The notes under the pieces were generated by a model. That model was given only the letters and a program-made list of their open reading frames with translations. It had not been told where the DNA came from and did no database searches. A stretch of DNA of 64,000 nucleotides from Felis catus (taxonomy: Eukaryota): NCBI RefSeq assembly GCF_018350175.1, contig NC_058368.1:40240001-40304000 (forward strand). Reading direction: 5' to 3'. Below, piece by piece: positions 3,757 to 60,291 of this stretch (within the stretch, counting starts at the first letter, position 1; each line of letters starts with the position of its first letter). The position numbers and the translations under genes are program-made.

Positions 3757-4216
3757 TAAAACTCATATGTAATTATCTTCACTCCTCTGTAGGCAGGGTG
3801 TTTTTCTTCCCCTGGCTTCTTTCTTTCAAAATATATATATTTTAAATGAAAATGGTATGCCTAGGTGTGATTTTTAGATACTTATTTTGCTTGGTGTTTT
3901 ATGAGCTTGCTGGATCTGTGGGTTTTTGTCTGTTATTAATTTGGGAAAATTTTCAGTCATTACTGTTTCAAGTATTCTTTTTTTTTTTTTTTTTTGTTCT
4001 CCTCCTGGTATTCCTATACGTGTATGCTACACATTTGTACTTGTCCCATAGTTCTTGGCTATTCTGTTTATTCATCTATTTTAGTATTTTTCTTTAATTT
4101 GCTTTTCAGTTTTAGAAATTTCTATTGTGATGTCCTCAAGCTCAGCAATTCTACTAATTCTACTAATAAGCCTATCAAAAGCATTATTTCTGCTACAATG
4201 TTCTTGATCTATAGCA

Positions 4217-4413
4217 TTTTTTAAAGTTTATTTATTTTGAGAAAGATCATGCGACAGAGAGCAGGGGAGGGGCAGAGAGAGGGACAGAATCCCAAGCAGG
4301 CTCCACACTGTCAGCGAGAAGCTGGACTGGAGGGCTAGAGCTTACCAACTGTGAGATCATGATCTGAGCAGAGATCAAGAGTCAGACACTCGGCTAAGCC
4401 ATCCAGACACCCC
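4217..4413 (-). mobile_element. CanSINE
   Basis: TTTATTTATT tail, GA tract, GAGATCATGATCTGAGC core, degenerate head. Confidence 0.88.
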
Positions 4414-6339
4414 AGATCCTATAGAACTTCTTTCTGCTTCTTTCTTGGTTTTTCTGCTCCCATTGCCCATCTCTTCTTACATGCCCTCTACCTTACGCGT
4501 TACAGCTATTCACATATTTATATAATCACAGTTGTTATACATTCCTGGCTTGAAAATTCCAGCATCTCTGCCATATCTGAGTTTGCTTTTGATGCTTTCT
4601 CTGTCTCTTCAAACTGTGTTGTTTTGCCTTTCAACATGTCTTGTATTTTTTTTTTTTCCTAGACTCAGACATGAGATACTGGGTGAAATGAACTACCACC
4701 CCCCCTCCCCCCACCAGCAAAGCCAAATAGTGCACCTTCAGATTCCAGCTGCTCCCTGTTTGCCCTCCTGGGAAATCCCACACTCCTCCCAACCAGATTA
4801 CGCCCCAGGTACAGTTTGTGAGCATCCCTGATGGTGTTCAAAAGAGAACATTTCCTGATTTAAGGGCTTACATGAAAGGGTCAGCTCCTCCATGGAATGG
4901 CGCTGGCAATTAGGCTGGGTCGGTAAGAGAGAACAAAGCCATGAGGTTTTTCTTCAAGGGACAAGATCTGAGGAACAGGCAGAGTGATGGTCTTTTGAGT
5001 TCAATTCTAGAGAACTCGGAGTTGGTGGGGAATAACTGGCCTCAGGACGTGCAATGAAATGGTGTGTTTGGGTTTTTGAGGCTTCGGACCTTGGCAGATG
5101 TGGGACCGGGACCCCAAGTTTCCGCTTCGGAAGCCTATGTCCTTTCACTGACTCGGTCCTTAGTTCTTTAGGAAGGCCATAAACTTGTGTGGGCGCTTTT
5201 TCACTGCCCCCATTCTGGCCTCAGACTACAGCTCCCACGCCCAGCCTTTAGGCCACAGCTCATTCCCACACTCGTGGTGGCAAGCACTCTGAGGCCAGGT
5301 GCCACAGTGTGACTCCGAAAGGGACAGGGACAGGCATCTACAAGGATTGAGGTTTGCCTGATAGGTGTCAGGAGCCAGAAGCCTCGCGGCTGACTTCGGG
5401 ACGAAGCTACTAAAGCAGCCAAAATTCCACACGACCTTACCGGCCCCCGTAGATCTCTCAACATCTCGCGAGATCTGTTTCTGCTGGGTGGTTAACTGAG
5501 ACGGCAGAGTTCCTGGCGTGGACGCAGTGCTTTCTGCTTCACCTCCGTCTCAGTGCTGTTCCAGCTGCTCTGCGGGGACCTACCAGCCTTACCAATAGGT
5601 GAGGAGTAGAGGGAGGAGGAGAATTCTATTGTCCTGTGGTTACAGTTTAGTCTTTTAGTGTGCTTTTATCTTTGGATTATTAACTTCACCTGTGCTCCGT
5701 GTTTAATCCCCTTAAACGGGACAAGAAGCCGGGAGTGGGCTGGAGATGACTAGTTTCCTTCTTCCATGTGGAATGCTAGAAGGGTCTGGGGTTGCATATT
5801 TCCTTTCCTGCAGTGAATTAAACTCTGATAAAACCTGGGAAATTAGACTAATTAAACAAAATGCTCTGGCATATTTTAAAATGTTTTATTTTTCCTCTAC
5901 CTCTGCCAGAAGTAAGAGAGTTTTTGTTGTTGTTTGTTTTTTTCAGCTTTCAGATTCACTGTAAGAATCAGGTTGAGCTTTTGGAGGTAAAAAAACAAAC
6001 AATGTGGAGTCCCCTTTATTAGTGGGTACTTCTGGAATTTTTGACTGTCAGAGTTATCCACACTGATCCTCCAGTAATTATCAAAGTTTAATTTTCCGTA
6101 CCTGGGGATGTTGCTGTTCATGGGCTTCTGATCTGGTAAATTGTGATTGTTTGTAATTTGCCTGTTGGTCTCTCCAATTTTGGGGATACTGGTTTTGCCT
6201 GTAATCTCATTTCTCCTATGGATCTAAGAAAAATTGATTTTCCACTGTGTTTAGTTTTTTTTATTGCTGTTTAAAATAAGAGTACCAGTTCCAAGCTTCT
6301 TACATTCCAGACTGCAGACCAAAAGTGTGGAGACTGCAT

Positions 6340-21934: not shown

Positions 21935-23061
21935 TAACATAAAATATCTTAAAGTTACTGCATTGTATTTTAAGCTGTTAAGAGCTTAACTGCAGCCACC
22001 TATAAATCCCTACTCTTTTACAGTTTCATCCCTTACATTTTTTTTATTGATGTCACAGCTTTCATCTTTATATATTGTAAAATCATTAACACAAATTTTT
22101 ATTTTTTAGTGCTTTTGTAACTTAAATTATATTCAAAGTTAAAAGCAAACAATATTATAATAAATAGAGGTTACTAATTTTTGTCTTGTTTTTACCTTTA
22201 ATGGAGAAATTTATATTTTTAATGGCTTCATGCTTTTATCTATTGTTTTATCATTTCAACCTGAAGGACTTCTGTTAGCATTTGTTGTAAAATAGGTATG
22301 ATGGTAATGAACTTTTTTAGTTTTTGTTTATCGGGGATTTTAATTTTTCCTTTCTGCGTATAGTATTTTCTTTGATAGTTTTTTTTTTCCCCTCTCTATT
22401 TTGAATATATCACCCTTCCTTTTGGCCTGAAAGGTTTCTATTGAGAAATCTACCAATAACTTATAAAAGTTCTATTATATATGATAAGTTGCTTTTCTCT
22501 TGCTACCTTCAAGATTCTTTGTCTTTGACTTTTGGCAGATTGGTCATAATGAGTTTTATGTAGATATCTTTGAGTTAAGTCTAGTTGGATTACATTAAGC
22601 ATCTTGAATTTTTACATTCACTCCTTTCCACGTTTGAGAACCTTTTAAGCATTACTTTTTTTTCTTTTTTTTCAATATATGAAATTTATTGTCAAAATGG
22701 TTTCCATACAACACCCAGTGCTCATCCCAAAAGGTGCCCTCCTCAGTACCCATCACCCACCCTCCCCTCCCTCCCACCCCCCATCAACCCTCAGTTTGTT
22801 CTTAGTTTTTTTTTTCTATTTTTTTCTATTTTTTTTATTATATATGAAATTTATTGACAAATTGGTTTCCATACAACACCCAGTGCTCATCCCAAAAGGT
22901 GCCCTCCTCAATACCCAACACCCACCCTCTCCTCCCTCCCACCCCCCATCAACCCTCAGTTTGTTCTCAGTTTTTAACAGTCTCTTATGCTTTGGCTCTC
23001 TCCCACTCTAACCTCTTTTTTTTTTTTCCTTCCCCTCCCCCATGGGTTCCTGCTAAGTTTC

Positions 23062-26000
23062 TCAGGATCCACATAAGAGTGAAACCATATGGTATCTGTC
23101 TTTCTCTGTATGGCTTATTTCACTTAGCATCACACTCTCCAGTTCCATCCACGTTGCTACAAAAGGCCATATTCCATTTTTTCTCATTGCCACGTAATAT
23201 TCCATTGTGTATATAAACCACAATTTCTTTATCCATTCATCAGTTGATGGACATTTAGGCTCTTTCCATAATTTGGCTATTGTTGAGAGTGCTGCTATGA
23301 ACATTGGGGTACAAGTGGCCCTATGCATCAGTACTCCTGTATCCCTTGGGTAAATTCCTAGCAGTGCTATTGCTGGGTCATAGGGTAGGTCTATTTTTAA
23401 TTTTCTGAGGAAACTCCACACTGCTTTCCAGAGCGGCTGCACCAATTTGCATTCCCACCAACAGTGCAAGAGGGTTCCCGTTTCTCCACATCCTCTCCAG
23501 CATCTATAGTCTCCTGATTTGTTCATTTTGGCCACTCTGACTGGCGTGAGGTGATACCTGAGTGTGGTTTTGATTTGTATTTCCCTGATAAGGAGCGACG
23601 CTGAACATCTTTTCATGTGCCTGTTGGCCATCCGGATGTCTTCTTTAGAGAAGTGTCTATTCATGTTTTCTGCCCATTTCTTCACTGGGTTATTTGTTTT
23701 TCGGGTGTGGAGTTTGGTGAGCTCTTTATAGATTTTGGATACTAGCCCTTTGTCCGATATGTCATTTGCAAATATCTTTTCCCATTCTGTTGGTTGCCTT
23801 TTAGTTTTGTTGGTTGTTTCCTTTGCTGTGCAGAAGCTTTTTATCTTCATAAGGTCCCAGTAATTCACTTTTGCTTTTAATTCCCTTTCCTTTGGGGATG
23901 TGTCAAGTAAGAGATTGCTACGGCTGAGGTCAGAGAGGTCTTTTCCTGCTTTCTCCTCTAAGGTTTTGATGGTTTCCTGTCTCACATTTAGGTCCTTTAT
24001 CCATTTTGAGTTTATTTTTGTGAATGGTGTGAGAAAGTGGTCTAGTTTCAATCTTCTGCATGTTGCTGTCCAGTTCTCCCAGCACCATTTGTTAAAGAGG
24101 CTGTCTTTTTTCCATTGGATGTTCTTTCCTGCTTTGTCAAAGATGAGTTGGCCATACGTTTGTGGGTCTAGTTCTGGGGTTTCTATTCTATTCCATTGGT
24201 CTATGTGTCTGTTTTTGTGCCAATACCATGCTGTCTTGATGATGACAGCTTTGTAGTAGAGGCTAAAGTCTGGGATTGTGATACCTCCTGCTTTGGTCTT
24301 CTTCAAAATTACTTTGGCTATTTGGGGCCTTTTGTGGTTCCATATGAATTTTAGGATTGCTTGTTCTAGTTTTGAGAAGAATGCTGGTGCAATTTTGATT
24401 GGGATTGCATTGAATGTGTAGATAGCTTTGGGTAGTATTGACATTTTGACAATATTTATTTTTCCAATCCATGAGCAGGGAATGTCTTTCCATTTCTTTA
24501 TATCTTCTTCAATTACCCTCATAAGCTTTCTATAGTTTTCAGCATACAGATCTTTTACATCTGTGGTTAGATTTATTCCTAGGTATTTTATGCTTCTTGG
24601 TTCAATTGTGAATGGGATCAGTTTCTTTATTTGTCTTTCTGTTCCTTCATTGTTAGTGTATAAGAATGCAACTGGGGCGCCTGGGTGGCGCAGTCGGCTA
24701 AGCATCCGACTTCAGCTAGGTCACGATCTCGCGGTCGGTGAGTTCGAGCCCCGCGTCGGGCTCTGGGCTGATGGCTCAGAGCCTGGAGCCTGTTTCCGAT
24801 TCTGTGTCTCCCTCTCTCTCTGCCCCTCCCCCGTTCATGCTCTGTCTCTCTCTGTCCCAAAAATAAATAAATGTTGAAAAAAAAAATTAAAAAAAAAAAA
24901 AGAATGCAACTGATTTCTGTACATTGATTTTGTATCCTGCAACTTTGCTGAATTCATGTATCAGTTCTAGCAGACTTCTGGTGGAGTCTATCGGATTTTC
25001 CATGTATAGTATCATGTCATCTGCAAAAAGTGAAAGCTTGACTTCATCTTTGCCAATTTTGATGCCTTTGATTTCCTTTTGTTGTCTGATTGCTGATGCT
25101 AGAACTTCCAACACTATGTTAAACAACAGCGGTGAGAGTGGGCATCCCTGTGTTGTTCCTGATCTCAGGGAAAAAGCTCTCAGTTTTTCCCCATTGAGGA
25201 TGATGTTAGCTGTGGGCTTTTCATAAATGGCTTTTATGATGTTTAAGTATGCTCCTTCTATCCCGACTTTCTCAAGGGTTTTTATTAAGAAAGGTTGCTG
25301 AATTTTGTCAAAGGCCTTTCTGCATCGATTGACAGGATCATATGGTTCTTATCTTTTCTTTTATTAATATGATGTATCACGTTGATTGATTTGCGAATGT
25401 TGAACCAGTCCTGCATCCCTGGAATGAATCCCACTTGATCATGGTGAATAATTCTTTTTATATGCTGTTGAATTCGATTTGCTAGTATCTTATTGAGAAT
25501 TTTTGCATCCATATTCATCAGGGATATTGGCCTGTAGTTCTCTTTTTTTACTGGGTCTCTGTCTGGTTTGGGAATCAAAGTAATACTGGCTTCATAGAAT
25601 GAGTCTGGAAGTTGTCCTTCCCTTTCTATTTTTTGGAATAGCTTGAGAAGGATAGGTATTATCTCTGCTTTAAACGTCTGGTAGAACTCCCCTGGGAAGC
25701 CATCTGGTCCTGGACTCTTATTTGTTGGGAGATTTTTGATAACCGATTCAATTTCTTCGCTGGTTATGGGTCTGTTCAAGCTTGCTATTTCATCCTGATT
25801 GAGTTTTAGAAGAGTGTGGGTGTTTAGGAAGTTGTCCATTTGTTGGCATATAATTTTTCATAGTATTCCCTGATAATTGTTTGTATCTCTGAGGGATTGG
25901 TTGTAATAATTCCATTTTCATTCATGATTTTATCTATTTGGGTCCTCTCCCTTTTCTTTTTGAGAAGCCTGGCTAGAGGTTTGTCAATTTTGTTTATTTT

Positions 26001-27101
26001 TTCAAAAAACCAACTCTTGGTTTCGTTGATCTGCTCTACAGTTTTTTTAGATTCTATATTGTTTATTTCTGCTCTGATCTTTATTATTTCTCTTCTTCTG
26101 CTGGGTTTAGGCTGCCTTTGCTGTTCTGCTTCTAGTTCCTTTAGGTGTGCTGTTAGATTTTCTATTTGGGATTTTTCTGGTTTCTTAAGATAGGCCTGGA
26201 TTGCAATGTATTTTCCTCTCAGGACTGCCTTCGCTGCGTCCCAAAGCGTTTGGATTGTTGTATTTTCATTTTCGTTTGTTTCCATGTAGTTTTTAATTTC
26301 TTCTCTAATTGCCTGGTTGACCCACTCATTCTTTAGTAGGGTGTTCTTTAACCTCCATACTTTTGGAGGCTTTCGAGACTTTTTCCTGTGGTTGATTTCA
26401 AGCCTCATAGCATTGTGGTCTGAAAGTATGCATGGTATAATTTCAATTCTTGTATACTTATGAAGGGCTGTTTTGTGACCCAGTATATGATCTATCTTGG
26501 AGAATGTTCCATGTGCACTCGAGAAGAAAGTATATTCTTTTGCTTTGGGATGCAGAGTTCTAAATATATCTGTCATGTCCATCTGATCCAATGTCTCATT
26601 CAGGGCCCTTGTTTCTTTATTGACCGTGTGCCTAGATTATCTATCCATTTCTGTAAGTGAAGTGTTAAAGTCCCCTGCAATTACCACATTCTTATCAATA
26701 AGGTTGCTTACGTTTATGAGTAATTGTTTTATATATTTGGGGGCTCCCGTATTCGGCGCATAGACATTTATAACTGGTAGCTCTTCCTGATGGAGAGACC
26801 CTGTAATTATTATACAATGCCCTTCTTCATCTCTTGTTACAGCCTTTTATTGAAAGTCTAGTTTGTCTGATATAAGTATGGCTACTCCAGCTTTCTTTTG
26901 GCTTCCAGTAGCATGATAAATAGTTCTCCATCCCCTCACTCTCAATCTAAATGTGTCCTCAGGTCTAAAATGAGTCTCTTGTAGACAGCAAATAGATGGG
27001 TCTTGTTTTTTTATCCATTCTGATACCCTATGTCTTTTGGTTGGCACATTTAATCCATTTACATTCAGTGTTATTACAGAAAGATATGAGTTTAGAGTCA
27101 T
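23062..27101 (-). pseudogene. Disrupted L1 ORF2
   Basis: ORF2 fragments in the track (23062-24705, 24887-25126, 25285-25839, 25824-26591, 26847-27155). SINE insertion at 24674, 1-bp deletion ~25317, ~19-bp deletion ~25841, nonsense change ~26847. Confidence 0.93.
24674..24899 (+). mobile_element. Young SINEC_Fc-type SINE inserted in L1 ORF2
   Basis: GGGGCGCCTGGGTGGCGCAGTCGG head, B-box GTTCGAGCCC, (CT)n, poly(A); TSD AAGAATGCAACT at 24662-24673 and 24900-24911. Confidence 0.97.
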
Positions 27102-27151
27102 TGTGATGTCTGTATGTTTTATGCTTGTAGCGATGTCTCTGGTACTTTGTC

Positions 27152-28041
27152 TCACAGGATTCCCCTTAGGATCTCTTGTAGGGCTGGTTTAATGGTGAGG
27201 AATTCCTTCAGTTTTTGTTTGTTTGGGAAGACCTTTATCTCTCCTTCTATTCTAAATGACAGACTTGCTGGATAAAGGATTCTCGGCTGCATATTTTTTC
27301 TGTTCATCACATTGAAGGTCTCCTGGCATTCCTTTCTGGCCTGCCAAGTTTCAAAAGAGAGATTGGTCACAAGTCTTATAGGTCTCCCTTTATATGTTAG
27401 GGCACGTTTATCCCTTGCTGCTTTCAGAATTTTCTCTTTTATCCTTGTATTTTGCCAGTTTCACTATGATATGTCGTGCAGAAGATCGATTCAAGTTACG
27501 TCTGAAGGGAGTTCTCTGTGCCTGTTGGATTTCAATGTCTTTTTCCTTCTCCAGTTCAGGGAAGTTCTCAGCTATTATTTCTTCAAGTACCCCTTCAGCA
27601 CCTTTCCCTCTCTCTTCCTCCTCTGGGATACCAATTATGCGTATATTATTTCTTTTTAGTGTATCACTTAGTTCTCTAATTTTCCCCTCATACTCCTGGA
27701 TTTTTTTATCTTTTTCTCAGCTTCCTCTTTTTTGTAATTTTATCTTCTAGTTCACCTATTCTCTCCTCTGCCTCTTCAATCCGAGCCATAGACGTTTCCA
27801 TTTTATTTTGCATCTCGTTTAAAGCGGTTTTCAGCTCCTCCTGACTGTTCCTTAGTCCCTTGATCTCTGTAGCAAGAGATTCTCTGCTGTCCTGTATACT
27901 GTTTTCAAGCCCAGCGATTAATTTTATGACTATTATTCTAAATTCACTTTCTGTGATATTATTTAAATCCTTTTTGATCAGCTCATTAGCTGTTGTTATT
28001 TCCTGGAGATTCTTCTGAGGGGAATTCTTCCGCTTGGTCAT
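27152..28041 (-). pseudogene. Frameshifted L1 ORF1
   Basis: ORF1 N-terminus (MTKRKNSPQ...) in 27706-28080 and C-terminus in 27152-27370; indels near 27440 and 27710-27735 relative to the intact copy. Confidence 0.9.
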
Positions 28042-28961
28042 TTTGGATAGTCCCTGGCGTGGTGAGGACCTGCAGGGCACTTCCCCTGTGCTGTGGTGTA
28101 TAACTGGAGTTGGTGGGCGGGGCCGCAGTCATACCTGATGTCTCCCCCCAGCCCACCGCTGGGACCACAGTCCGACTGGTGTGTGCCTTCTCTTCCCCTC
28201 TCCTAGGGCCGGGATTCACTGTGGGGTGGTGTGGCCCGTCTGGGCTACTTGCACACTGCCAGGCTTGTGGAGCTGGGGATCTGGCATATTAGCTGGGGTG
28301 GGTAGGCAAGGTGCACGGGGGCAGGAGGGGCAGGCTTATCTCGCTTCTTCTTAGGTGATCCACATCAGGAGGGGCCCTGTGGCAGCGGGAGGGAGTCAGA
28401 CCCGCTGCCGGAGGGGTGGCTCCGCAGAAGCACAGTGTTGGGTGTTTGCGCTGAGCAAGCAAGTTCCCTGGCAGGAACTGGTTCTCTTTGGGATTTTGGC
28501 TGGGGGATGGGCGAGGGAGATGGCCCCGGGAGTGCCTTTGTTCCCCTCCAAACTGAGCTCTGTTGTCCCAGGGCTCAGCAACTCTCCCTCCCTTTGTCCT
28601 CCAGCCTTCCTGCTTTCAGAGACATAGCTGTTAACTTATGACCTCCCAGATGCTAAGTCCCGCTTGCTGTGGGAACACGGAACACACTCCGTCCAGCCCC
28701 TCTGCTTTTGCAAGCCAGACTTGGGGGCTCTGCTTGGCTGGCAGGCCGCTCCTCCGCCCCTGGCTCCCTCCCGCCAGTCCGTGGAGCGCGCACCACCTGT
28801 CCTCCCTTCCTATCGTCTTCCGTTTGCCTCTCGTCTGCTCTTGGCTTGGCTTCGGAGACTTAGTTCTGCTAATCCTCTGGCGGTTTTCTGGGTTATTTAG
28901 GCAGGTGTAGGTGGAATCTAAGTGATCAGCAGGACGCGCGGTGAGCCCAGCGTCCTCCTAT

Positions 28962-28972
28962 GCCGCCATATT
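28962..28972 (-). promoter_or_regulatory. YY1-binding motif at L1 5' terminus
   Basis: GCCGCCATATT on + matches the YY1 consensus GCCGCCATNTT, at the position expected for mammalian L1 5' ends. Confidence 0.7.
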
Positions 28973-30495
28973 CCTCCAATCAAGCATTATTTTTCAAATA
29001 AGCTGTCTGCCCCTTTTGCCACTGTCCTTCTTCAATGACTCCTATAATGCATGTTATAATTCCTAACATCATAATGTAATTATTAGTCAAGCTGCTATAA
29101 AGGTCCATGGGGAGACTTTTGAGTGGAAATAATTTTTGTAGTTAATTTGGGTAAATGCTAAGAAGTGTGATTGGTGAATCCTAGTGTGAGTATATATTTA
29201 CTTTTATGAGAAACTATCACCGTGTCTTCCAAAGCAGGTGCGCCATTTTCCCGATACCAAGTAATGTGGTTACTTGTTGCTCTGCATCATTGCCAGTATT
29301 TGGTGCTGTCAGTGTTCTGGATTGGTCACTTTAGTAGATATATAATAGCATTTAATTTTCGTCAGTTTGCATTTCCCTGATGACCTATGTTGTGGGGCAC
29401 ATTTTCATATTCCTATTGGCCATTTTTGTATCTTCTTTGATGAAGTAAATGTCTGTTAAGGTCTTTGGCCTATTTTTAAATTGTGTTGTTTATGTTTTAT
29501 TGCTGAGTTTTAAGAATTCCTTGTGTATTTTGAGTAACAGTCCTTTATCATTTATGTTGTTTTGCAAATTCTTAAAGTCTGTGGTTTTTTAAAATATCTC
29601 TTGACAGTGTCTTTTGCTGAGTTCAAGTTTTTTATTTTAATTTTATTTAGTAAACTGTATCTTAGCGATTCTTTCTGTCCTGAATTGTTCCTTTGGTGTT
29701 GTATCTAAAATATCATCATCAAACCCATGGTTATGTTGATTTTTCCTGTGTTATCTTTTAACAGCTCTTTGGTTTTTTGTTTGTATGTAGATGTGAAGTT
29801 TTTAAAAGACTACCTATTTATTGAAAAGACCATCTTTTTTTTTTCTTTTCTATTTTATTGCCTTTCTCTTTTATCAATCTGCAAACAAAGACAGTTTTTC
29901 TTTCTTCTCAATCTGTATATCTTTAATATGTCATAGGTTTAGCTAGGAATTCAGCTACAGTGTTGAAAAGGAGTGGTGAAAGGGGATAACCTTGTTCCTG
30001 ATCTTGGTGGGAAAGCCTTGAGTTTCTTACCATTAACTGTGACATGACCTAAGTTTTTTGTATGTGTTCTGTATTAAGTTGAGTGAGTTCTCTATTCCTA
30101 GTTTTCTTAGAGTTTTGAACATGAATGGATATTATATTTTGTCAAGGCCTTTTCCTGCTTCTGATGGTATGATTATCTGTTATTTCTTCATTAGCCCTTT
30201 GCTATGATAGTTTATTTTACAATGTTGAGCCAGGCTTACATACTTTGGATAAATCCCACTTGATTGTGCTGTGTCCCTTTTATACATGGTTGGATTTGAT
30301 TTGTTAATATTCTGTTGAAAATTTTGTATCTATATTCATGAGAGATATTGGTCTATAGTTTTTGTGTAGCATGTTTTTCTGGTTTTAGTAATAGGGAATG
30401 CTGCCCTCACAGAATGAGTTAGGTATTTTCCCTTGGCTTCCATCTCTGAAAGCGATTATAGAGGATTAGTATAATTTCCTTAAAATTTTTACTGA

Positions 30496-46056: not shown

Positions 46057-46857
46057 ATGCATCTTTTTTTCAAGACTCCCAGTTCTTGCATCTTAGATCC
46101 CATTGTACATTCTCTTAACCTCATGATAACAACCCAGAATAGTTTCAATATTTTTTCATGTTGGCAAATAATGATTTCGAAAAATAGAATCATAGACTAT
46201 AAGCTTTTCCCTATGTTTTATTTTTCATTTAAAAAAATTATATTTTGATATACCTCTAAAATCCAGCCTTTGGTATAATGCCCCATGCACTCAGTGAAGA
46301 GTCTTAGGAGTCAATTGGTGGAAAGATGCTGATTTACACTGTGACTGGGTGTCTGGGGCATCCTAATCTGGTACACAAGCCCACACATGGCTAGTAAGAG
46401 ACATTTAGTTAACAGTTGGTTTCTCCTTTGTCCCGTTTATGTCAGCCTTATTTGCCACCACTTCACCAGAGAGTAGAACAGTGGTTGGTCTTTTCTTTCC
46501 TGTGAGGACCACAGTCTACTTTAAAATTTAGTTTATTTGTGTATATTGTATTTTTAGCTGATTTTTTTAAAAAAAATCTATGATTTTGTAGCTTATTCAG
46601 TTTGTTTTAATTCTTAGGGTGGGAATGGAAATTCCTTCAAACTTCTAACCAGAGGTCAGAGTTTGCCTTCTTTGACTTTTTTACCTCCATTTCTCTTAGT
46701 CGTAGTCTAGCTCTTCTAATCATCAACAACCACAACTCTTATAAATTCTTTATTTCAACCAACATTTCTCTAACCATGATCCTTCTCCTTACAAATTAAT
46801 TGCTCTAAGCAATCCCACTCCAATAATTATTTCAGTTCATAAGGAACTTCAGTTTCT

Positions 46858-47704
46858 TGCAGTGAGATCATAGAAAATATGTACATTGGCCTCTGCCTCC
46901 TGGTACAGAGCTCTTAAAACTCATGCGGTTTGCTAACTGATAAGAGCATGAGGAGCATCTTTTATTCTAGTGAGGCAATTTTTGGTGGGCTTCTGGTGGG
47001 GGCTGGTCACTGGAAAGACCAAGCCATGATTAGAAGTTCAGAGTTATTGGCTCCCCCCACCCCACTTCTCCAGCATGAGGAAAAGGGCTGGAAACGGAGT
47101 TAGTCATGCCTACTCTGAAGAAGCATTCATAAAAATCCCAATAGTATGGGTTCTGAAAGCTTCTGGGTGGGGAAACAGATTTACACCAAGAGGATGATAC
47201 ACCCTGACTCTAGAGGCACAGCAGCTCCTGAGCTTGGGACCTTCCCAGGTCTTGCCTTATGTATTTCTTCATCTGGCTGTTCATCTGTACCCTCTATTGT
47301 ATCCTTTAATAAACTGGTAAATAAAAGTAAGTTTTCCCTTGAGTTCTGTGAGCTGCTCTAGCAAATTAATTGAACCTGAGGAGCAGGTTGTGGGAACCTC
47401 CAATCAGCAGCCAGGCAGACAGAAGATGTGGGTAACATGGGGACTTACTACTTGCAACTGGAATCTGAAGTGGGGGCGCGCAGGGAGGAGTAGTCTCGTG
47501 GGACTAAGCTCCTAACCTGTGGGATCTGACACTATCTCCAGGTAGGTAATATCAGAATTGAGTTAAATTGTGCTCAGCTGGTGCCTCAGAGAATTCCTAG
47601 GTGGGAGAAAAATCTTCATACATTTGGTGACAGAAGTAGCAGATGTGAAGTGTTCTATGTGAAAGAAGAGACAATGGGGGAAAGACTGGAATTTTTTCCT
47701 AACA
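46858..47704 (+). mobile_element. MER21-like solo LTR
   Basis: TG...CA ends; GGGGCTGGTCACTGGAAAGACCAAGCCATGATTAG, AATAAACTGGTAAA, CTGAGTTCTGTGAGCTGCTCTAGCAAATTAATTGAACC, TCAGAATTGAGTTAAATTG. Confidence 0.85.
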
Positions 47705-48255: not shown

Positions 48256-48689
48256 TTTTTTCATATTAAATACTTTATTATTATAATTATAATTATTATT
48301 TTAGTTTTAAGTGTAGAAATTAGTGATTCATCACTACATACAACACATAGTGCTCATCAGAACAAGTGCCCTCCTTAATCTACATCACTTATTTAACCCA
48401 TCCCCCCCACCAACCTCCCCTCTGATAACCCATGGTGTTTGTTCCCTATAGTTCTGTTTCTTGGTTTGCCTCTCTCTCTCTTTTTTTTCTTTCCCCTATA
48501 TTCTTCTGTTTTGTTTCTTAAATTCCACATATGAGTGAAAACCTATGGTATTTGTGTTTCTGTGTTTATTTCACTTAGCCTAATACTTTCTAGCTACATC
48601 CCTGTCATTGCAAATGGCAAGATTTAATTTTTTCTTATGGCTGAGTAATATTCCATTGTATATATATACACCACATCTTTATCCATTCA
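48256..48689 (-). mobile_element. 5'-truncated carnivore L1 3' end
   Basis: L1 3'UTR antisense; TSD TAGCTGATGACTT at 48243-48255 and 48690-48702. Confidence 0.9.
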
Positions 48690-48719
48690 TAGCTGATGAC
48701 TTCTAAGTTACCAACTCCA

Positions 48720-49720
48720 GTTATAATTTATGTCCTTACTTTTCATCAGCTTTCTGCTAACTTCCAAAGTATTAACGCATTTTATTTCTCTTTGATTCTG
48801 GGATTCTCTTGGTTGTTGAAAATCTTTTGATATTCATATAATGGTGTTTTTTCCCCCCTTCTCAGTTGTTTCTGTTGACTACTCTCAATATCAGTGAGCC
48901 TTTAAATGATACCACTCATTGGGTAAGTCCTGGATTCTCTTCTCAATCTAACAATTTTTCTCTATGTTATCTCTTCCAATAGCCTGGCTATACATGCCAT
49001 TCATGGCAGTGATTTCTAAATTTAAATCTTCCTGATCTCTCAACTGAAATACAAAATCATGCATATAACAAGATAAGTTTGAGAACTTAATCTGGATACC
49101 TAATAGGCTTGTCAAGCTTAAAATGTCCTTAAAATGCCCTTGATACCTAACCCTTGTGCAGATTCTTCCCTTTTCCCCCTTCTATATAAATGATTTATGC
49201 TTCATACAGTTAATTGTATTCAGAGCCAGATTCTTTCCATCTCCATTCCAATGGAGTCTTTCCATCTCCATTCATTCTATTTAATCTGCCCTCAAATTTT
49301 ATGGGCTCTAACTTCAAAGTGTATCCTGAATCCATTTAGCTTCTCATTTTTTTCTTTGCTAGTACCAGAATGCAACTCACCATCTGCTGATATCTAGACT
49401 ATTCTGAAAATATCCTGCGTGATCTCCCTGCCTCCTTGCTGCTCTTTGTATCCACTCTCAGCATAGTGGAAAGAGTGACCATTTTAAAGAACAATTCAGA
49501 ACACATCCTCTACTTCCTTAAAGGATTCCTGTTAAAATCAGTTCAAAGGCAAAATACATATTTGGGTCCCACAAATATCCCTGTTTAACATTTCCATTGC
49601 TTACTTTGTTCATAACATATTGGTCTCTTTTATGTTCCTCAAAAATGCAAAACTTATTTCTGTCTCTATTTCTTACTCCAGAACCCACAAGAGATGGAGC
49701 CCTGCTTATTATTAGATGTT
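48720..49720 (+). mobile_element. L2 fragments
   Basis: Pyrimidine-rich L2-like blocks (ATCTAGACTATT, GATCTCCCTGCCTCC, AGAGTGACCATTTTAAA). Confidence 0.6.
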
Positions 49721-50691
49721 ACCTCCTGGTAGAGCCCTGGGCATTTCTGCAGGATATTTTAACATAAACTTATCTTTTATGATAATACTCTTAATATTCT
49801 GTAATCAGCTTTTGTAATAATCAATAATTTGTATATACAAGAAAAATTTCATACTGCAGTAAGAATCCTCTTATGCAAATTAATTATTCTAAAGTTTCTG
49901 TCTCATTATTTGTTTACACTAAAAGTCTTAATGTTGGAGGACTTGTTTGGAAAATCTGATCGAAAATACATGGTAGTGTCATAGAAAAGTTAAAGGTAGA
50001 ATAACCTCAAGGCAATACAGAATTATTCACCAAAATGATTATAAGTGTTAGAGCTAGGTTGTTCATGCATGTGTAGCAGTTCTCCAGGGTAAGTAACAGA
50101 AGGGATTTATTTATTCAAGAATGGTTCCTATTTCCTCTGAGTATGCTTGATTGGCCAGCTGTTTATAAATATGTAGGATTGTATTACAATATCAAAGCAG
50201 AAAGTACATCTAAGACTCATGAACCAAAACAGAAACAAGAACTAGTATTAGGAACCAAGGCAGCTAATTTTTTAGGGCCTCTTCAAGGAGTTACGATCTT
50301 GCCTCTTTCTCTGCTTTTCATGGTAAACCTGTGTGTCACAGCTAACTTTTTCTCTGTAATTCTGCATGCACATGTACACATGACCTACTATGCTCACCCA
50401 CCCAATAATAATCCTCAGTTCTAGCCATCAACTGAAATCAATTCCAAATTTTTGGAGAGATCATCCAGTTGTCTCAATCTGGGCCAGGTTTCTAAGCTTG
50501 GAGTTCTTGCTTTGGCCCAGGAACTGTTAAATAGAACAGTCATGGCTCTAAAAGCTTATGAGGCTTTCACAGACTGGTTGCTATGGACAAGGTAACAGCA
50601 AGAAGTCTCTATTTGGGTGGCAGAAATAATGGTTTTAATTTTACTTTGATGAGAGATTTAAATTAACAAGTGTGTTATGCAAATAGGTAAT

Positions 50692-50724
<33 letters not shown>

Positions 50725-51011
50725 TTTCTTGCTAGCTTTGTTCCTTTTCTTTTTAGCTCTTTTTTTTTTTTTTTTCTTCTTTTTTTTTTTTTTAATATGA
50801 AATTTATTGACAAATTAGTTTCCATACAACACCCAGTGCTCATCCCAGAAGGTGCCCTCCTCAATACCCATCACCCACCCTCTCCTCCCTCCCACCCCCC
50901 ATCAACCCTCAGTTTGTTCTCAGGTTTTAAGAGTCTCTTATACTTTGGCTCTCTCCCACTCTAACCTGTTTTTTTTTTCCTTCCCCTCCCCCATGGGTTC
51001 CTGTTAAATTC

Positions 51012-54000
51012 TCAGGGTCCACATAAGAGTGAAACCATATGGTATCTGTCTTTCTCTGTATGGCTTATTTCACTTAGCATCACACTCTCCAGTTCCATCC
51101 ACGTTGCTACAAAAGGCCATATTTCATTTTTTCTCATTGCCACGTAATATTCCATTGTGTATATAAACCACAATTTCTTTATCCATTCATCAGTTGATGG
51201 ACATTTAGGCTCTTTCCATAATTTGGCTATTGTTGAGAGTGCTGCTATGAACATTGGGGTACAAGTGGCCCTATGCATCAGTACTCCTGTATCCCTTGGA
51301 TAAATTCCTAGCAGTGCTATTGCTGGGTCATAGGGTAGGTCTATTTTTAATTTTCTGAGGAACCTCCACACTGCTTTCCAGAGCGGCTGCACCAATTTGC
51401 ATTCCCACCAACAGTGCAAGAGGGTTCCCGTTTCTCCACATCCTCTCCAGCATCTAGAGTCTCCTGATTTGTTCATTTTGGCCACTCTGACTGGCGTGAG
51501 GTGATACCTGAGTGTGGTTTTGATTTGTATTTCCCTGATAAAGAGCGACGCTGAACATCTTTTCATGTGCCTGTTGGCCATCCGGATGTCTTCTTTAGAG
51601 AAGTGTCTATTCATGTTTTCTGCCCATTTCTTCACTGGGTTATTTGTTTTTCGGGTGTGGAGTTTGGTGAGCTCTTTATAGATTTTGGATACTAGCCCTT
51701 TGTCCGATATGTCATTTGCGAATATCTTTTCCCATTCCGTTGGTTGCCTTTTAGTTTTGTTGGTTGTTTCCTTTGCTGTGCAGAAGCTTTTTATCTTCAT
51801 AAGGTCCCAGTAATTCACTTTTGCTTTTAATTCCCTTGCCTTTGGGGATGTGTTGAGTAAGAGATTGCTACGGCTGAGGTCAGAGAGGTCTTTTCCTGCT
51901 TTCTCCTCTAAGGTTTTGATGGTTTCCTGTCTCACATTTAGGTCCTTTATCCATTTTGAGTTTATTTTTGTGAATGGTGTGAGAAAGTGGTCTAGTTTCA
52001 ACCTTCTGCATGTTGCTGTCCAGTTCTCCCAGCACCATTTGTTAAAGAGGCTGTCTTTCTTCCATTGGATGTTCTTTCCTGCTTTGTCAAAGATGAGTTG
52101 GCCATACGTTTGTGGGTCTAGTTCTGGGGTTTCTATTCTATTCCATTGGTCTATGTGTCTGTTTCTGTGCCAATACCATGCTGTCTTGATGATGACAGCT
52201 TTGTAGTAGAGGCTAAAGTCTGGGATTGTGATGCCTCCTGCTTTGGTCTTCTTCTTCAAAATTCCTTTGGCTATTCGGGGCCTTTTGTGGTTCCATATGA
52301 ATTTTAGGATTGTTTGTTCTAGTTTCGAGAAGAATGCTGGTGCAATTTTGATTGGGATTGCATTGAATGTGTAGATAGCTTTGGGTAGTATTGACATTTT
52401 GACAATATTTATTTTTCCAATCCATGAGCAGGGAATGTCTTTCCATTTCTTTAAATCTTCTTCAATTTCCTTCATAAGCTTTCTATAGTTTTCAGCATAC
52501 AGATCTTTTACATCTTTGGTTAGATTTATTCCTAGGTATTTTATGCTTCTTGGTGCAATTGTGAATGGGATCAGTTTCTTTATTTGTCTTTCTGTTGCTT
52601 CATTGTTAGTGTATAAGAATGCAACTGATTTCTGTACATTGATTTTGTATCCTGCAACTTTGCTGAATTCCTGTATCAGTTCTAGTAGACTTTTGGTGGA
52701 GTCTATCGGATTTTCCATGTATAATATCATGTCATCTGCAAAAAGCGAAAGCTTGACTTCGTCTTTGCCAATTTTGATGCCTTTGATTTCCTTTTGTTGT
52801 CTGATTGCTGATGCTAGAACTTCCAGCACTATGTTAAACAGCAGCGGTGAGAGTGGGCATCCTTGTCGTGTTCCTGATCTCAGGGAAAAAGCTCTCAGTT
52901 TTTCCCCGTTGAGGATGATGTTAGCTGTGGGCTTTTCATAGATGGCTTTTATGATCTTTAAGTATGTTCCTTCTATCCCGACTTTCTCAAGGGTTTTTAT
53001 TAAGAAAGGGTGCTGGATTTTGTCAAAGGCCTTTTCTGCATCGATTGACAGGATCATATGGTTCTTCTCTTTTTTTTTGTTAATGTGATGTATCACGTTG
53101 ATTGATTTGCGAATGTTGAACCAGCCCTGCATCCCAGGAATGAATCCCACTTGATCATGGTGAATAATTCTTTTTATATGCCGTTGAATTCGATTTGCTA
53201 GTATCTTATTGAGAATTTTTGCATCCATATTCATCAGGGATATTGGCCTGTAGTTCTCTTTTTTTACTGGGTCTCTGTCAGGTTTAGGAATCAAAGTAAT
53301 ACTGGCTTCATAGAATGAGTCTGGAAGTTTTCCTTCCCTTTCTATTTCTTGGAATAGCTTGAGAAGGATAGGTATTATCTCTGCTTTAAACGTCTGGTAG
53401 AACTCCCCTGGGAAGCCATCTGGTCCTGGACTCTTATTTGTTGGGAGATTTTTGATAACCGATTCAATTTCTTCACTGGTTATGGGTCTGTTCAAGCTTT
53501 CTATTTCCTCCTGATTGAGTTTTGGAAGAGTGTGGGTGTTCAGGAATTTGTCCATTTCTTCCAGGTTGTCCAATTTGTTGGCATATAATTTTTCATAGTA
53601 TTCCCTGATAATTGTTTGTATCTCTGAGGGATTGGTTGTAATCATTCCATTTTCATTCATGATTTTATCTATTTGGGTCATCTCCCTTTTCTTTTTGAGA
53701 AGCCTGGCTAGAGGTTTGTCAATTTTGTTTATTTTTTCAAAAAACCAACTCTTGGTTTCGTTGATCTGCTCTACAGTTTTTTTAGATTCTATATTGTTTA
53801 TTTCTGCTCTGATCTTTATTATTTCTCTTCTTCTGCTGGGTTTAGGCTGCCTTTGCTGTTCTGCTTCTAGTTCCTTTAGGTGTGCTGTTAGATTTTGTAT
53901 TTGGGATTTTTCTTGTTTCTTGAGATAGGCCTGGATTGCAATGTATTTTCCTCTCAGGACTGCCTTCGCTGCGTCCCAAAGCGTTTGGATTGTTGTATTT

Positions 54001-54836
54001 TCATTTTCGTTTGTTTCCATATATTTTTTAATTTCTTCTCTAATTGCCTGGTTGACCCACTCATTCGTTAGTAGGGTGTTCTTTAACCTCCATGCCTTTG
54101 GAGGTTTTCCAGACTTTTTCCTGTGGTTGATTTCAAGCTTCATAGCATTGTGGTCTGAAAGTATGCATGGTATAATTTCAATTCTTGTAAACTTATGAAG
54201 GGCTGTTTTGTGACCCAGTATGTGATCTATCTTGGAGAATGTTCCATGTGCACTCGAGAAGAAAGTATATTCTGTTGCTTTGGGATGCAGCGTTCTAAAT
54301 ATATCTGTCAAGTCCATCTGATCCAATGTCTCATTCAGGGCCCTTGTTTCTTTATTGACCGTGTGTCTAGATGATCTGTCCATTTCTGTAAGTGGGGTGT
54401 TAAAGTCCCCTGCAATTACCACATTCTTATCAATAAGATTGCTTATGTTTATGAGTAATTGTTTTATATATTTGGGGGCTCCGGTATTCGGCGCATAGAC
54501 ATTTACAATTGTTAGCTCTTCCTGATGGATAGACCCTGTAACTATTATATAATGTCCTTCTTCATCTCTTGTTACAGCCTTTAATTTAAAGTCTAGTTTG
54601 TCTGATATAAGTATGGCTACTCCAGCTTTCTTTTGGCTTCCAGTCGCATGATAAATAGTTCTCCATCCCCTCACTCTCAATCTAAAGGTGTCCTCAGGTC
54701 TAAAATGAGTCTCTTGTAGACAGCAAATAGATGGGTCTTGTTTTTTTATCCATTCTGATACCCTATGTCTTTTGGTTGGTGCATTTAATCCATTTACATT
54801 CAGTGTTATTATAGAAAGATACGGGTTGAGAGTCAT
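51012..54836 (-). CDS. ORF2: LINE-1 ORF2p (endonuclease / reverse transcriptase / C-terminal cysteine-rich domain), 1274 aa from first ATG
   Basis: Uninterrupted ORF. APE endonuclease motifs (NVNGLN, CLQETH, GDFN, SDH), RT motifs ([12 protein letters not shown]), C-terminal CWRGC...HCWWEC. ATG of MTLNPY at 54836; the ORF track start at 54890 is a GTG. Confidence 0.97.
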
Positions 54837-54886
54837 TGTGATGTCTGTATGTTTTATGCTTGTAGTGATGTCTCTGGGACTTTGTC

Positions 54887-55780
54887 TCACAGGGTCCCCC
54901 TTAGGATCTCTTGTAGGGCTGGTTTAGTGGTGACAAATTCCTTCAGTTTTTGTTTGTTTGGGAAAACCTTTATCTCTCCTTCTATTCTAAATGACAGACT
55001 TGCTGGGTAAAGGATTCTCGGCTGCATATTTTTTCTGTCTAGCACCCTGAAAATCTCGTGCCAATTCTTTCTGGCCTGCCAAGTTTCAAAAGAGAGATCA
55101 GTCACGAGTCTTATAGGTCTCCCTTTATATGTGAGGGCACGTTTACCCCTTGCTGCTTTCAGAATTTTCTCTTTATCCTTGTATTTTGCCAGTTTCACTA
55201 TGATATGTCGTGCTGAAGATCGATTCAAGTTACGTCTGAAGGGAGTTCTCTGTGCCTCTTGGATTTCAATGCCTTTTTCCTTCCCCAGTTCAGGGAAGTT
55301 CTCAGCTATGATTTCTTCAAGTACCCCTTCAGCACCTTTCCCTCTCTCTTCCTCCTCTGGGATACCAATTATGCGTATATTATTTCTTTTTAGTGTATCA
55401 CTTAGTTCTCTAATTTTCCCCTCATACTCCTGGATTTTTTTATCTCTCTTTTTCTCAGCTTCCTCTTTTTCCATAACTTTATCCTCTAGTTCACCTATTC
55501 TCTCCTCTGCCTCTTCAAGCCGAGCTGTGGTGGTTTCCATTTTGTTATGCATTTCGTTTAAAGCGTTTTTCAGCTCCTCGTGACTGTTCCTTAGTCCCTT
55601 GATCTCTGTAGCAAGAGATTCTCTGCTGTCCTGTATACTGTTTTCAAGCCCAGCGATTAATTTTATGACTATTATTCTAAATTCACTTTCTGTTAAATTA
55701 TTTAAATCCTTTTTGATCAGTTCATTAGCTGTTGTTATTTCCTGGAGATTCTTCTGAGGGGAATTCTTCCGCTTGGTCAT
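54887..55780 (-). CDS. ORF1: LINE-1 ORF1p (RNA-binding chaperone; coiled coil-RRM-CTD), 297 aa
   Basis: ATG of MTKRKN at 55780. Heptad-rich coiled coil, [14 protein letters not shown] start, ARK/YPASLS CTD motifs; stop at 54887. Confidence 0.95.
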
Positions 55781-56597
55781 TTTGGATAGTCCCTGGCGTG
55801 GTGAGGACCTGCAGGGCACTTCCCCTGTGTTGTGGTGTATAACTGGAGTTGGTGGGCGGGGCCGCAGTCAGACCTGATGTCTGCCCCCAGCCCACCGCTG
55901 GGGCCACAGTCAGACTGGTGTGTGCCTTCTCTTCCCCTCTCCTAGGGGCGGGATTCACTGTGGGGTGGTGTGGCCCGTCTGGGCTACTTGCACACTGCCA
56001 GGCTTGTGATGCTGGGGATCTGGCGTATTAGCTGGGGTGGGTAGGCAAGGTGCACGGGGGTAGGAGGGGCAGGCTTAGATCGCTTCTCCTTAGGTGATCC
56101 TCTTCAGGAGGGGCCCTGTGGCAGCGGGAGGGAGTCAGATCCGCTGCCGGAGGTTTGGCTCCGCAGAAGCACAGAGTTGGGTGTTTGCGCGGAGCGAGCA
56201 AGTTCCCTGGCAGGAACTGGTTCTCTTTGGGATTTTGGCTGGGGGATGGGCGGGGGAGATGGCGCTGGCGAGCGCCTTTGTTCCCCACCAAGCTGAGCTC
56301 TGTCGTCAGGGGGCTCAGCAGCTCTCCCTCCCTTTGTCCTCCAGCCTTCCCGCTTTCTGAGCAGAGCTGTTAACTTATGACCTCCCAGACGCTAAGTCGC
56401 GCTTGTTGTGGGAACACAGTCCGTTAGGCCCCTCCGCTTTTGCCAGCCAGACTCGGGGGCTCTGCTTGGCCGGCGAGCCGCCCCTCCGCCCCGGCTCCCT
56501 CCCGCCAGTCCGTGGAGCGCGCACCGCCTCGCAGCCCTTCCTACCCTCTTCCGTGGGCCTCTCGTCTGCGTTTGGCTCCGGCGACTCCGTTCTGCTC
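55781..56597 (-). promoter_or_regulatory. L1 5'UTR internal Pol II promoter (CpG-rich), lacking its extreme 5' end
   Basis: GC/CpG-rich and homologous to 28042-28870 of the other L1; established L1 architecture. Confidence 0.85.
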
Positions 56598-56952
56598 GCA
56601 AATAGGTAATTAAAATAACTTTATTTTCAATTCCCTACAACACCCCTCACATTTAAATCTAGGTATAAACCAAGTTATTTTCTGACATTATTAATTTTAT
56701 GCTATTATAAGTTTTTGTTTTTACAATTATTTTTAAATTTTTCATTAGATCTCTTAACTCTATTTTAATGTTACTTCTTTTCTAAACCCATGGGAAAAGC
56801 TAGAATATAATTTATGTTACTGTAACATAGAGACTCAAATATGCTATGATTCAAAATACATAGAAGTTAAGTGTCTCTCACAGTATGTTCTAGAGGTAGG
56901 TAGGTGTCCCAGAGCAGGAATGCAGCTCTTATCCATACAATGATCAGGGCTT

Positions 56953-57741: not shown

Positions 57742-57990
57742 TTTATTTTATTTTTATTTTTTTTTTATTAAAAAAATTTTTTTTCAACGTTTTTTATTTA
57801 TTTTTGGGACAGAGAGAGACAGAGCATGAACGGGGGAGGGGCAGAGAGAGAGGGAGACACAGAATCAGAAACAGGCTCCAGGCTCTGAGCCATCAGCCCA
57901 GAGCCTGACGCGGGGCTCGAACTCACAGACCGCGAGATCGTGACCTGGCTGAAGTCGAACGCTTAACCGACTGCGCCACCCAGGCGCCCC
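57742..57990 (-). mobile_element. Young SINEC_Fc-type SINE
   Basis: CpGs intact; TSD TCTGTTACTTT at 57731-57741 and 57991-58001. Confidence 0.96.
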
Positions 57991-58719
57991 TCTGTTACTT
58001 TTTTAATAATCGTGTTATTCTGCTGGCTGTTTTATGTTATTTTTCTTCATGATTGAAATGTAAAAACATTGTAGATCTACATATAGTTATAGATCTTCAA
58101 TAATTTTTTTCTGAAGTAAAAAAGAATAAGGTGTAATGAGACCAATAGGCTCAGATCTAGATGAGATCTGAGAGTGTTTACTGTCCTGTGATATTCAGGG
58201 AAAAAAGTTTCAAAAAGAAAATGGTACCATAGTTGATATGATATTAAGGACTCTGAAGTCCACATGGTCTGAGAACTAGTGCAGGGAGAGAAGAATGACT
58301 TTAAAGATTTTAGTACCTTGTCACATGGTAATAAAGGGGGTGGGCATTGAAACTTGGGGTGCAAAGAATATTATCGGAGGCAGCTGGTAGGTACATTTAT
58401 TTCTTTTTTTTTATAATAAGCTTGTGACAAATGTGACATGTGTTCAGTTTGGCTTGGTGGCAAGAAACTTGTTTTTGTATTGGTAATTAAAAGGATCTGA
58501 ATATATTTTGTGGGTAAGAGAGGTTCACAAATGATAGTACTGCAAGTGGTTTTAAGCATTCCGTGAGACCCTAACCTTGTTAGAGAACAGGGATCCATAC
58601 CTGTCGCCATTATTTATTCCTTACAGTGAAGAACTAGCCAGGTACATAGTAGATACATAATAAACATTTGTTGAATAAATGAGTAGTTGAGTGAGACAAA
58701 TAGAATTACTTAATTTCTT

Positions 58720-59672
58720 GTATTCTTTGGATAAATTCCTAGTAGTTCAATTGCTGGGTCCTAGGGTAATTCTATTTTTAATTTTTTGAGGAACCTCTAG
58801 ACTGTTTTCCAGAGTGGCTGCACCAGTTTGCATTCTCACAAACAGTGCAAGTGGATTCCCCTTTCTCCACATCCTCGCCAACATCTGTTGTTTCCGGATT
58901 TGTTAATTTTAGCCACTCTGACTGATGTGAGGTGGTATCTCATTGTGGTTTTGATTTATATTTCCCTAATGATGAGTGATGTTGAGCATCTTTTCATAGG
59001 TCTGTTTGCCATCTGGATGTCTTCTTTGGAAAAGTGTCTATTCATGTCTTCTGCCCACTTCGTCAATGGATTTTTTTGTTTTTTGAGTGTTGAGTTTGAT
59101 AGATTCTCTATAGATTTTAGATACTAACCCTTTGTCTGAGAAGTCATTTGCATATATCAGACTGCTGATTTGAAGGGGAACATGCACCCCAATGTTTATA
59201 GCAGCACTATCAACAATAGCCAAATTGTGGAAAGAGCCCAAATGTCCATCAACTGATGACCGGATTAAAAAGATGGAATACAATTCAGCTATGAAAAAGA
59301 ATGAAATCTTACCATTTGCAACAACCTGGATGGAACTGGAGGGTATTATGCTAACTGAAATCAGTCAGTCAGAGAAAGATATCACATGATTTCACTCATA
59401 TGTGGAATTTGAGAAACTTAACAAATGATCATAGGGGAAGACTAAAAAAAATAAGATAAAGCCAGAGAGGGAGGCAAACCATAAGAGACTCTTAGATACA
59501 GAGAACAAACTGAGGGTCGATGGGGAAGATGGGTGATGGGCATTGAGGAGGGCACTTGTCGGAAGAGCACTGGGTGTTGTATGTAAGTGATGAATCACTG
59601 GAATCTACTCCTGAAGCCAAGACTACACTGTATGTTAACTAACTTGAGAATAAAAAAAAAAAATTAAAAAAA
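58720..59672. mobile_element. 5'-truncated, 5'-inverted (twin-primed) carnivore L1
   Basis: 58720-59157 is L1 ORF2 3' region in minus orientation. 59158-59672 is the adjoining L1 sequence in plus orientation ([20 protein letters not shown]...), ending in poly(A). Confidence 0.9.
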
Positions 59673-59916: not shown

Positions 59917-60140
59917 ATTTTTTTTATTTTTTTTTCAACGTTTTTTTATTTATTTTTGGGACAGAGAGAGACAGAGCATGAACAGGGGAGGGGCAGAGAG
60001 AGAGGGAGACACAGAATCGGAAACAGGCTCCAGGCTCCGAGCCATCAGCCCAGAGCCTGACGCGGGGCTCGAACTCACGGACCGCGAGATCGTGACCTGG
60101 CTGATGTCGGACGCTTAACCGACTGCGCCACCCAGGCGCC
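59917..60140 (-). mobile_element. Young SINEC_Fc-type SINE
   Basis: CpGs intact; TSD CCCTAGTGTTTT at ~59905 and ~60141. Confidence 0.96.
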
Positions 60141-60291
60141 CCCCTAGTGTTTTATTATAGTAATAGTTGTTTTGTTGTTTATTTTAATCTCTGCATTTTT
60201 GTCTCCTTCACTTCCAGAACTTCAACCACACATCCAGTGCTTGAACTGACTATACAACATCCCTTCCAAGTGTTTATCTATCCTAAGAAAT

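Follow-up and report, generated by a model that had tools for sequence, protein, structure and literature searches.

A young and very probably segregating L1 insertion of the domestic cat with two open reading frames and a clipped 5' end

Can an L1 copy of the cat genome that has kept both of its reading frames open still act as a source of new copies? This question is raised by a minus-strand L1 in a 64,000-nt stretch of Felis catus DNA (the window), which a first-pass annotation had described as a very recent feline element, potentially competent for retrotransposition and possibly insertion-polymorphic. The two copies of its target site duplication (TSD) enclose 5904 nt, and the element is composed as follows (window coordinates).

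50679-50693, no strand: TSD copy flanking the L1 3' end, identical to 56598-56612 at 15 of 15 positions
50694-50722, minus: terminal poly(A), pure A29 (T29 on the forward strand), read from the sequence
50723-50759, minus: candidate 3' transduction, 37 nt of non-L1 sequence flanked by A tracts on both sides
50760-50793, minus: internal A tract A14-GAAG-A16, read as the tail of the parent copy itself
50794-51011, minus: L1 3'UTR, 218 nt, containing the L1 AATAAA at 50803-50808
51012-54836, minus: ORF2, 1274 aa, with APE-type endonuclease, reverse transcriptase and C-terminal Cys/His motif
54837-54886, minus: inter-ORF spacer, 50 nt
54887-55780, minus: ORF1, 297 aa, with a putative coiled coil, an RRM-like domain and a C-terminal domain
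55781-56596, minus: 5'UTR, CpG-rich, its 5' end short by about 105-120 nt
56597, minus: single extra G at the 5' junction, matching neither the family nor the target site
56598-56612, no strand: TSD copy flanking the L1 5' end; empty-type contigs match exactly from 56598

The TSD, which had been called perfect, is so at all 15 positions; the 15-mer occurs just twice in the window, its match allows no extension, and a given pair of 15-mers would match by chance with a probability of about 1e-9 if equal base use is assumed. An equally good parse gives a TSD of 14 bp and one extra base following the tail. The nick site is ATTA/AA with the 15-bp TSD or AATT/AA with the 14-bp TSD, a poor match to TTTT/AA; variants of the TTTT/AA-type nick site are tabulated for L1 in PMC4859970, and in that table two human insertions have a queried additional T at the 3' side. 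Self-alignment revealed no terminal repeats, and the poly(A) end combined with a 15-bp TSD is characteristic of the LINE-1 clade, in which TSDs measure 7-20 bp. The terminal poly(A) is indeed an uninterrupted run of 29 nt, and the 5'UTR has retained CpGs as annotated, with 45 of them in 817 nt (junction G included), a GC content of 64% and an observed/expected ratio of 0.54 versus 0.20 in the rest of the window.

Both reading frames are open over 297 and 1274 aa. Pfam searches identified Exo_endo_phos (1e-23) and RVT_1 (1e-48) in ORF2p, and Transposase_22 and Tnp_22_dsRBD in ORF1p, all over the curated cut-offs. Membership of the LINE-1 clade is indicated by an ORF2 with APE endonuclease, reverse transcriptase and C-terminal Cys/His motif and by an ORF1 with the L1 RRM-like and C-terminal domains. 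The structure of human ORF2p (8uw3) aligns to the cat protein end to end (residues 4-1273) with an offset of one residue, and ORF1p is alignable to structure 2ykp. The FADD motif of the reverse transcriptase lies at residues 699-702 and the C-terminal Cys/His motif at 1129-1146 of ORF2p. In the register of the 8uw3 alignment, the expected residue was found at 17 of 17 ORF2p positions checked in the endonuclease, the reverse transcriptase and the C-terminus, in agreement with the annotated catalytic motifs; in human numbering, these positions are N14, E43, Y115, D145, N147, T192, D205, H230, D600, F605, D702, D703 and five C-terminal Cys/His residues. The copy shares two open frames and catalytic residues with full-length intact L1s. 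A search for an antisense ORF0-like frame revealed nothing beyond a frame of 33 aa.

An alignment with 20 other mammalian ORF2p contains 624 columns conserved at 90% or more, and the cat element departs from 34 of them. As 33 of these departures also occur in an older neighbouring L1 and the remaining one (T257) in most cat members, no private change falls in a conserved column. Four ORF2p residues (V111, T842, N995 and F1099) are shared with none of the named cat proteins that cover them and, together with L29 of ORF1p, amount to 5 private residues in 1571, or about 0.14% per non-synonymous site. N995 is a change of the CpG-decay type, and residue 842 is the same as in the aligned human ORF2p. 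These roughly five private residues mean that the sequence has undergone some decay or drift of its lineage or contains assembly errors. The ORF1p motifs RGKR and ARKNW were considered as damaged forms of human REKG and ARR; this was rejected, as RGKR and the ARK core are found in all covering cat members. It is rather likely that the proteins of this element would work if expressed.

The feline identity of the element and its recent origin, both stated in the annotation, are supported by its nearest cat relatives, from which ORF1p differs at 1 of 297 and ORF2p at 5 of 1168 residues. The best ORF1p cluster in UniRef (A0ABI7W6C3, 234 members) matches at 98%, and its full-length members are 96-100% identical to our protein; 40 of the 234 members were examined, eight of these are named, and all eight are from Felis catus. 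The closest ORF1p, identical at 296 of 297 residues, is a sequence (P0129) that belongs to a cluster named Felis catus and is present on 13 contigs. ORF2p has the UniRef relatives A0ABI7ZE45 and A0ABI7WDS5; it is 96.5-99.6% identical to six named cat proteins among the matches listed of a 780-member cluster, the nearest of these matches being a Felis catus protein (P0390) with 5 differences in 1168 aa (99.6%), and about 96-97% identical to four lion proteins. An exact look-up in the protein collection found no entry identical to ORF1p or ORF2p. In the 5'UTR, 2 positions in 218 nt are unlike the bulk of the family contigs. If felid genomes accumulate about 2e-9 substitutions per site and year, the insertion would be at most some hundred thousand years old, a value to be read as an upper bound because some of the changes may stem from the parent or from the assembly.

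The window holds a second long L1 on the minus strand at 22647-28994 (the element itself at about 22657-28981), an older full-length copy from the lineage of the young element that has kept its 5' end and a YY1-like core. It is flanked by a degenerate TSD, AAGCATTA, at 22647 and 28982, its ORF2 is interrupted by stops at codons 85 and 155, and it has deletions of 19 nt and 1 nt. It diverges from the young element by 5.1% up to element nt ~2577 and by 2.3% beyond that point, a contrast reached in 0 of 300 permutations; this neighbour could be a chimera, or change in ORF1 and the endonuclease could have been faster in the lineage. A shift of divergence at the SINE carried by this neighbour was rejected as the best change point lies near nt 2577 and the SINE near nt 3980. 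At 22657-22975, the neighbour ends in two tandem L1 3' ends (period 165), both carrying an A-rich tail; of these, the inner end is nearer to the young element, and the outer end differs from it at several sites. This arrangement fits a 3' transduction of the end of another L1 as well as the priming of a young cDNA within the 3'UTR of an older L1. The CpG-rich SINE at 24675-24911, presumably of the Can-SINE type, is inserted in the neighbour's ORF2 in opposite orientation with a 12-bp duplication. SINE copies at 57794-57989 and 59946-60141 are 96% alike, which suggests recent SINE activity.

Further repeats surround the element. An older L1 fragment consists of a minus-strand part at 58716-59158 (83.5% identical to the element) beside a plus-strand part at 59174-59586 (73.5%), an inversion which we take to be a twin-priming pattern. 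At 46840-47660, a stretch of about 800 nt with raised GC and an AATAAA resembles, by eye, a solo LTR left by an old endogenous retrovirus. The region 4001-6000 has a GC content of 43-49% and 37 CpG in 2 kb (observed/expected 0.35), exceeding its surroundings, and gave 0 Pfam matches in the frames scanned. Twelve of the 13 distinct blastn matches to the element outside it lie on the minus strand, a bias that would be expected within an intron of a plus-strand gene. A search for such a host gene gave 0 Pfam matches in the 25 frames scanned out of 65 stop-free ones of at least 75 aa outside the two long L1s and identified no exon; a gene with short exons is possible.

Whether the insertion segregates was addressed with contigs of public sequencing runs. 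The unique left flank (48720-50678) was present at a share of 1.00 in 20 of 24 listed runs from 10 studies; 19 of these runs are labelled organism A and one organism B. Four of the 20 flank-holding runs, from four studies (X5, X14, X16 and X19), were compared over 56380-56945. Runs X21-X24 (organisms C and D) contain almost no flank words; they were left out and are no evidence of absence. The filled 5' junction is present in X14 (organism A) and X19 (organism B), in each case in a 412-nt contig that matches 56567-56945 with 0 differences and comprises 31 nt of L1, extra G included, the TSD and the flank. X14 is flagged as a possible source of the window, in which case it is not independent; X19 is unflagged. 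That the second organism label with a whole flank also bears the filled allele would be explained if closely related Felis taxa inherited it from a common ancestor or exchanged it by introgression.

In X5 and X16 (both organism A), the sole contig spanning the right flank matches exactly from 56598, the first base of the TSD. The X5 contig has 2018 more letters ahead of this base and would extend to about 48661, which falls within an old L1 fragment (48524-48698) where a contig break is expected; with a depth of 27, this contig can hardly traverse a high-copy L1. The X16 contig has 15 more letters ahead of 56598, and 15 + 15 = 30 is the overlap (k-1) expected at a branch of empty and filled paths, so that X16 may be heterozygous. 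The lengths and break points of both contigs fit an empty allele. Insertion polymorphism, which the first-pass annotation had offered as a possibility, is supported by these data: two of four runs are filled and two are of the empty type, as inferred from contig break points. Contigs drop rare variants, and these filled and empty counts carry no zygosity.

The 5' end is where the element falls short of its family. Family sequence continues past 56596 in 27, 9, 21 and 18 contigs of the four runs, and about 105-120 nt of the family 5' terminus are missing, including an ATGGCG core that we take to be the YY1 motif. This core lies 99 nt ahead of the element's first family base both in the neighbouring L1 and in a metagenome contig (L001), where it reads CAAGATGGCGG; in each of the two, a further leader of about 8-20 nt is present as well. 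L001 came from an ORF1 scan of metagenomes that yielded three loci; it is felid-like (91%) and was used, and L002 (52%) and L003 (48%) were excluded. On the sense strand of the 817-nt 5'UTR, ATGGC, the YY1 core, is absent, as is an upstream ATG. The copy therefore has neither the family 5' terminus nor the YY1 motif of a full-length intact L1 with a complete 5'UTR. At 56597, its sense base is G, where the family (neighbour, L001 and run contigs) has T and the empty site A.

This 5' end would most plausibly have arisen by incomplete cDNA synthesis plus one untemplated G; that it was copied from an RNA starting at that very base is a somewhat weaker prospect. In the latter case, a capped transcript would have begun here, by an internal start or from a parent already without the first ~110 nt, and the copy would belong to a propagating lineage devoid of the YY1 motif. 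The L1 reverse transcriptase also appends untemplated bases when an end is truncated, and RNA polymerase II starts follow a pyrimidine-purine rule. The end of the element sits at a T|A step and carries an extra G, and an untemplated G at L1 5' ends has been taken as a copy of the cap that marks capped full-length RNA (PMC4859970). Furthermore, three contigs of X19 match through 56597, G included, and then continue into long (median 255) AT-rich letters, whose mutual agreement of 0.61 compares with 0.58 ± 0.04 expected for three unrelated flanks. They appear to derive from other loci that share this start base and its G; three ends at one base have P ≤ 0.014 if random ends occur at less than about 1 per base, a rate that was assumed. 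This shared end was found in one of the four runs, among the matches listed, and the untemplated G would be compatible with simple truncation as well, which leaves a lineage propagating from this start a tentative reading. Scans of viral and prokaryote contigs for the 5'-end pattern gave 0 and 0 matches, blanks that are uninformative as these collections are unlikely to contain cat DNA.

A second departure from the family concerns the 3' end, where the L1 AATAAA (50803-50808) is followed in order by A14-GAAG-A16, the 37 nt of non-L1 sequence, A29 and the TSD. AACAAA is a variant polyadenylation signal. In the 37-nt segment, this hexamer lies 14 nt ahead of the tail and may have served as the signal; an AATAAA also present there extends into the tail. 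The segment is absent from the tail of the neighbouring L1, has no second copy in the window and gave 0 matches in metagenome contigs. Non-L1 letters flanked by two A tracts are a described form of 3' transduction (PMC4859970), and here they lie within the TSD; the segment is a strong candidate for such an event. Transcription of a parent L1 elsewhere would have continued beyond the poly(A) signal and tail of that copy through 37 nt of adjoining 3' sequence, and the transcript would then have been polyadenylated; the ORF2p of the parent would have nicked an A/T-rich site, where the RNA was primed on its tail and reverse-copied, as inferred from L1 biology. Such a course would account for the observed product, namely a 15-bp TSD, A29, two open reading frames and a start within the family 5'UTR, about 105-120 nt from its beginning, with the extra G, in an insertion that some animals now seem to carry and others to lack.

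What remains of the promoter decides how the annotated competence is to be judged. Because the clipped family 5' end takes the YY1 motif with it, source status is less likely than had been implied, and the first-pass annotation over-stated competence, the promoter end being gone. A complete source element running from its native promoter would agree with two open frames free of private changes in conserved columns, with 817 nt of retained CpG-rich 5'UTR and with the polymorphism; in human L1, moreover, the internal region 390-526 can drive transcription starts while YY1 fixes the start site, and retrotransposition in HeLa cells persisted when the YY1 site of the full-length promoter was mutated (PMC7778262). 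It is at odds with the absence of about 105-120 nt and the YY1 motif, with the mapping of the first 100 bp of human L1 as critical to full-length transcription (PMC7778262) and with the role of YY1 as a strong activator for mouse Tf, weaker for human L1 (PMC11602158), and we consider it unlikely. The loss may cut both ways for promoter function, as human L1 copies without the YY1 motif escape methylation and one of them is an active source (PMC10879037, PMC7778262); that the cat element acts as a source in spite of its clipped, YY1-less promoter is nevertheless doubtful to us.

A copy that was dead on arrival, its reading frames looking intact and its activity lost through the promoter, methylation or a private substitution, comes close to an even chance. 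The clipped promoter and the roughly five private residues among those compared speak for it, as does the experience from human L1 that open reading frames by themselves do not demonstrate activity; it is weakened by the position of the private residues in variable columns, by the agreement of ORF2p residue 842 with the human protein and by the tendency of YY1-motif loss to reduce methylation in human cells (PMC10879037). An assembly artefact, in which a consensus L1 was placed or collapsed here and its compound tail mis-assembled, might be suspected from the homopolymer-rich 3' end and the near-consensus reading frames. It is highly improbable given the perfect TSD, the private letters of the 5'UTR and the exact 5' junction with its extra base in contigs of two runs from different studies, one of them unflagged as source; this support from run contigs covers the 5' junction, not the tract lengths of the 3' end. 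The element is very probably a young, segregating, 5'-short member of the current L1 family of the domestic cat. A bolder proposal, in our view improbable, is that cats harbour an L1 lineage with a fixed capped start about 110 nt inside the 5'UTR, without the YY1 motif, with working proteins and escaping YY1-linked methylation, of which this copy would be one of several and an active source traceable by the 37-nt tag.

In kind the element is ordinary, as young polymorphic L1s with open reading frames are expected in mammals and number in the hundreds in the dog. L1Base 2 gives 1 full-length intact L1 for an older cat assembly versus 264 for the dog, if its column heads are read correctly. Intact L1s are under-reported in draft assemblies, cat among them (PMC5203782), full-length L1 fragments are more numerous in Felis_catus_9.0 than in 8.0 (PMC7581003), and UniRef contains another cat ORF2p of 1274 aa; these observations argue that the present copy is not unique. 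No retrotransposition assay of a cat L1 and no survey of dimorphic cat L1s was found in the literature searched, which was thin on subscription papers, and the excerpts of a dog review (PMC13756887) held no passage on functional or population study of cat L1. In practice, the locus can be typed by PCR as a marker, it is a candidate with which cat L1 proteins could be put to a functional test for the first time, its 37-nt tag can lead to the parent L1, and it provides a natural experiment on whether the first ~110 nt of an L1 are dispensable.

Compared with known systems, the element is closest to the current Felis catus L1 family, with which it shares the two-ORF layout, domains, TSD and poly(A) and from which it differs by the missing first ~105-120 nt and the 37-nt 3' extension. 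Dog L1_Cf (L1_Cf-104_5 and dimorphic L1_Cf) is likewise a dimorphic carnivore L1, with a median TSD of 15 bp and parentless 3' transductions (PMC7980453, PMC13141329); about 1.8% of dimorphic dog L1s carry a mappable 3' transduction, most of them parentless (PMC13141329). Its ORF2p is 75% identical to that of the cat element, whereas its 5'UTR is different and the single named dog ORF1p aligned reaches 53%. A dog L1_Cf copy retrotransposed in HeLa cells (PMC7980453, PMC13141329). Human Chr13-delta31 and other L1HS copies lacking the YY1 motif resemble it in being polymorphic and ORF-intact with the motif gone (PMC10879037, PMC7778262); species and promoter sequence differ, and the deletion of Chr13-delta31 measures 31 nt versus about 110 nt in the cat element.
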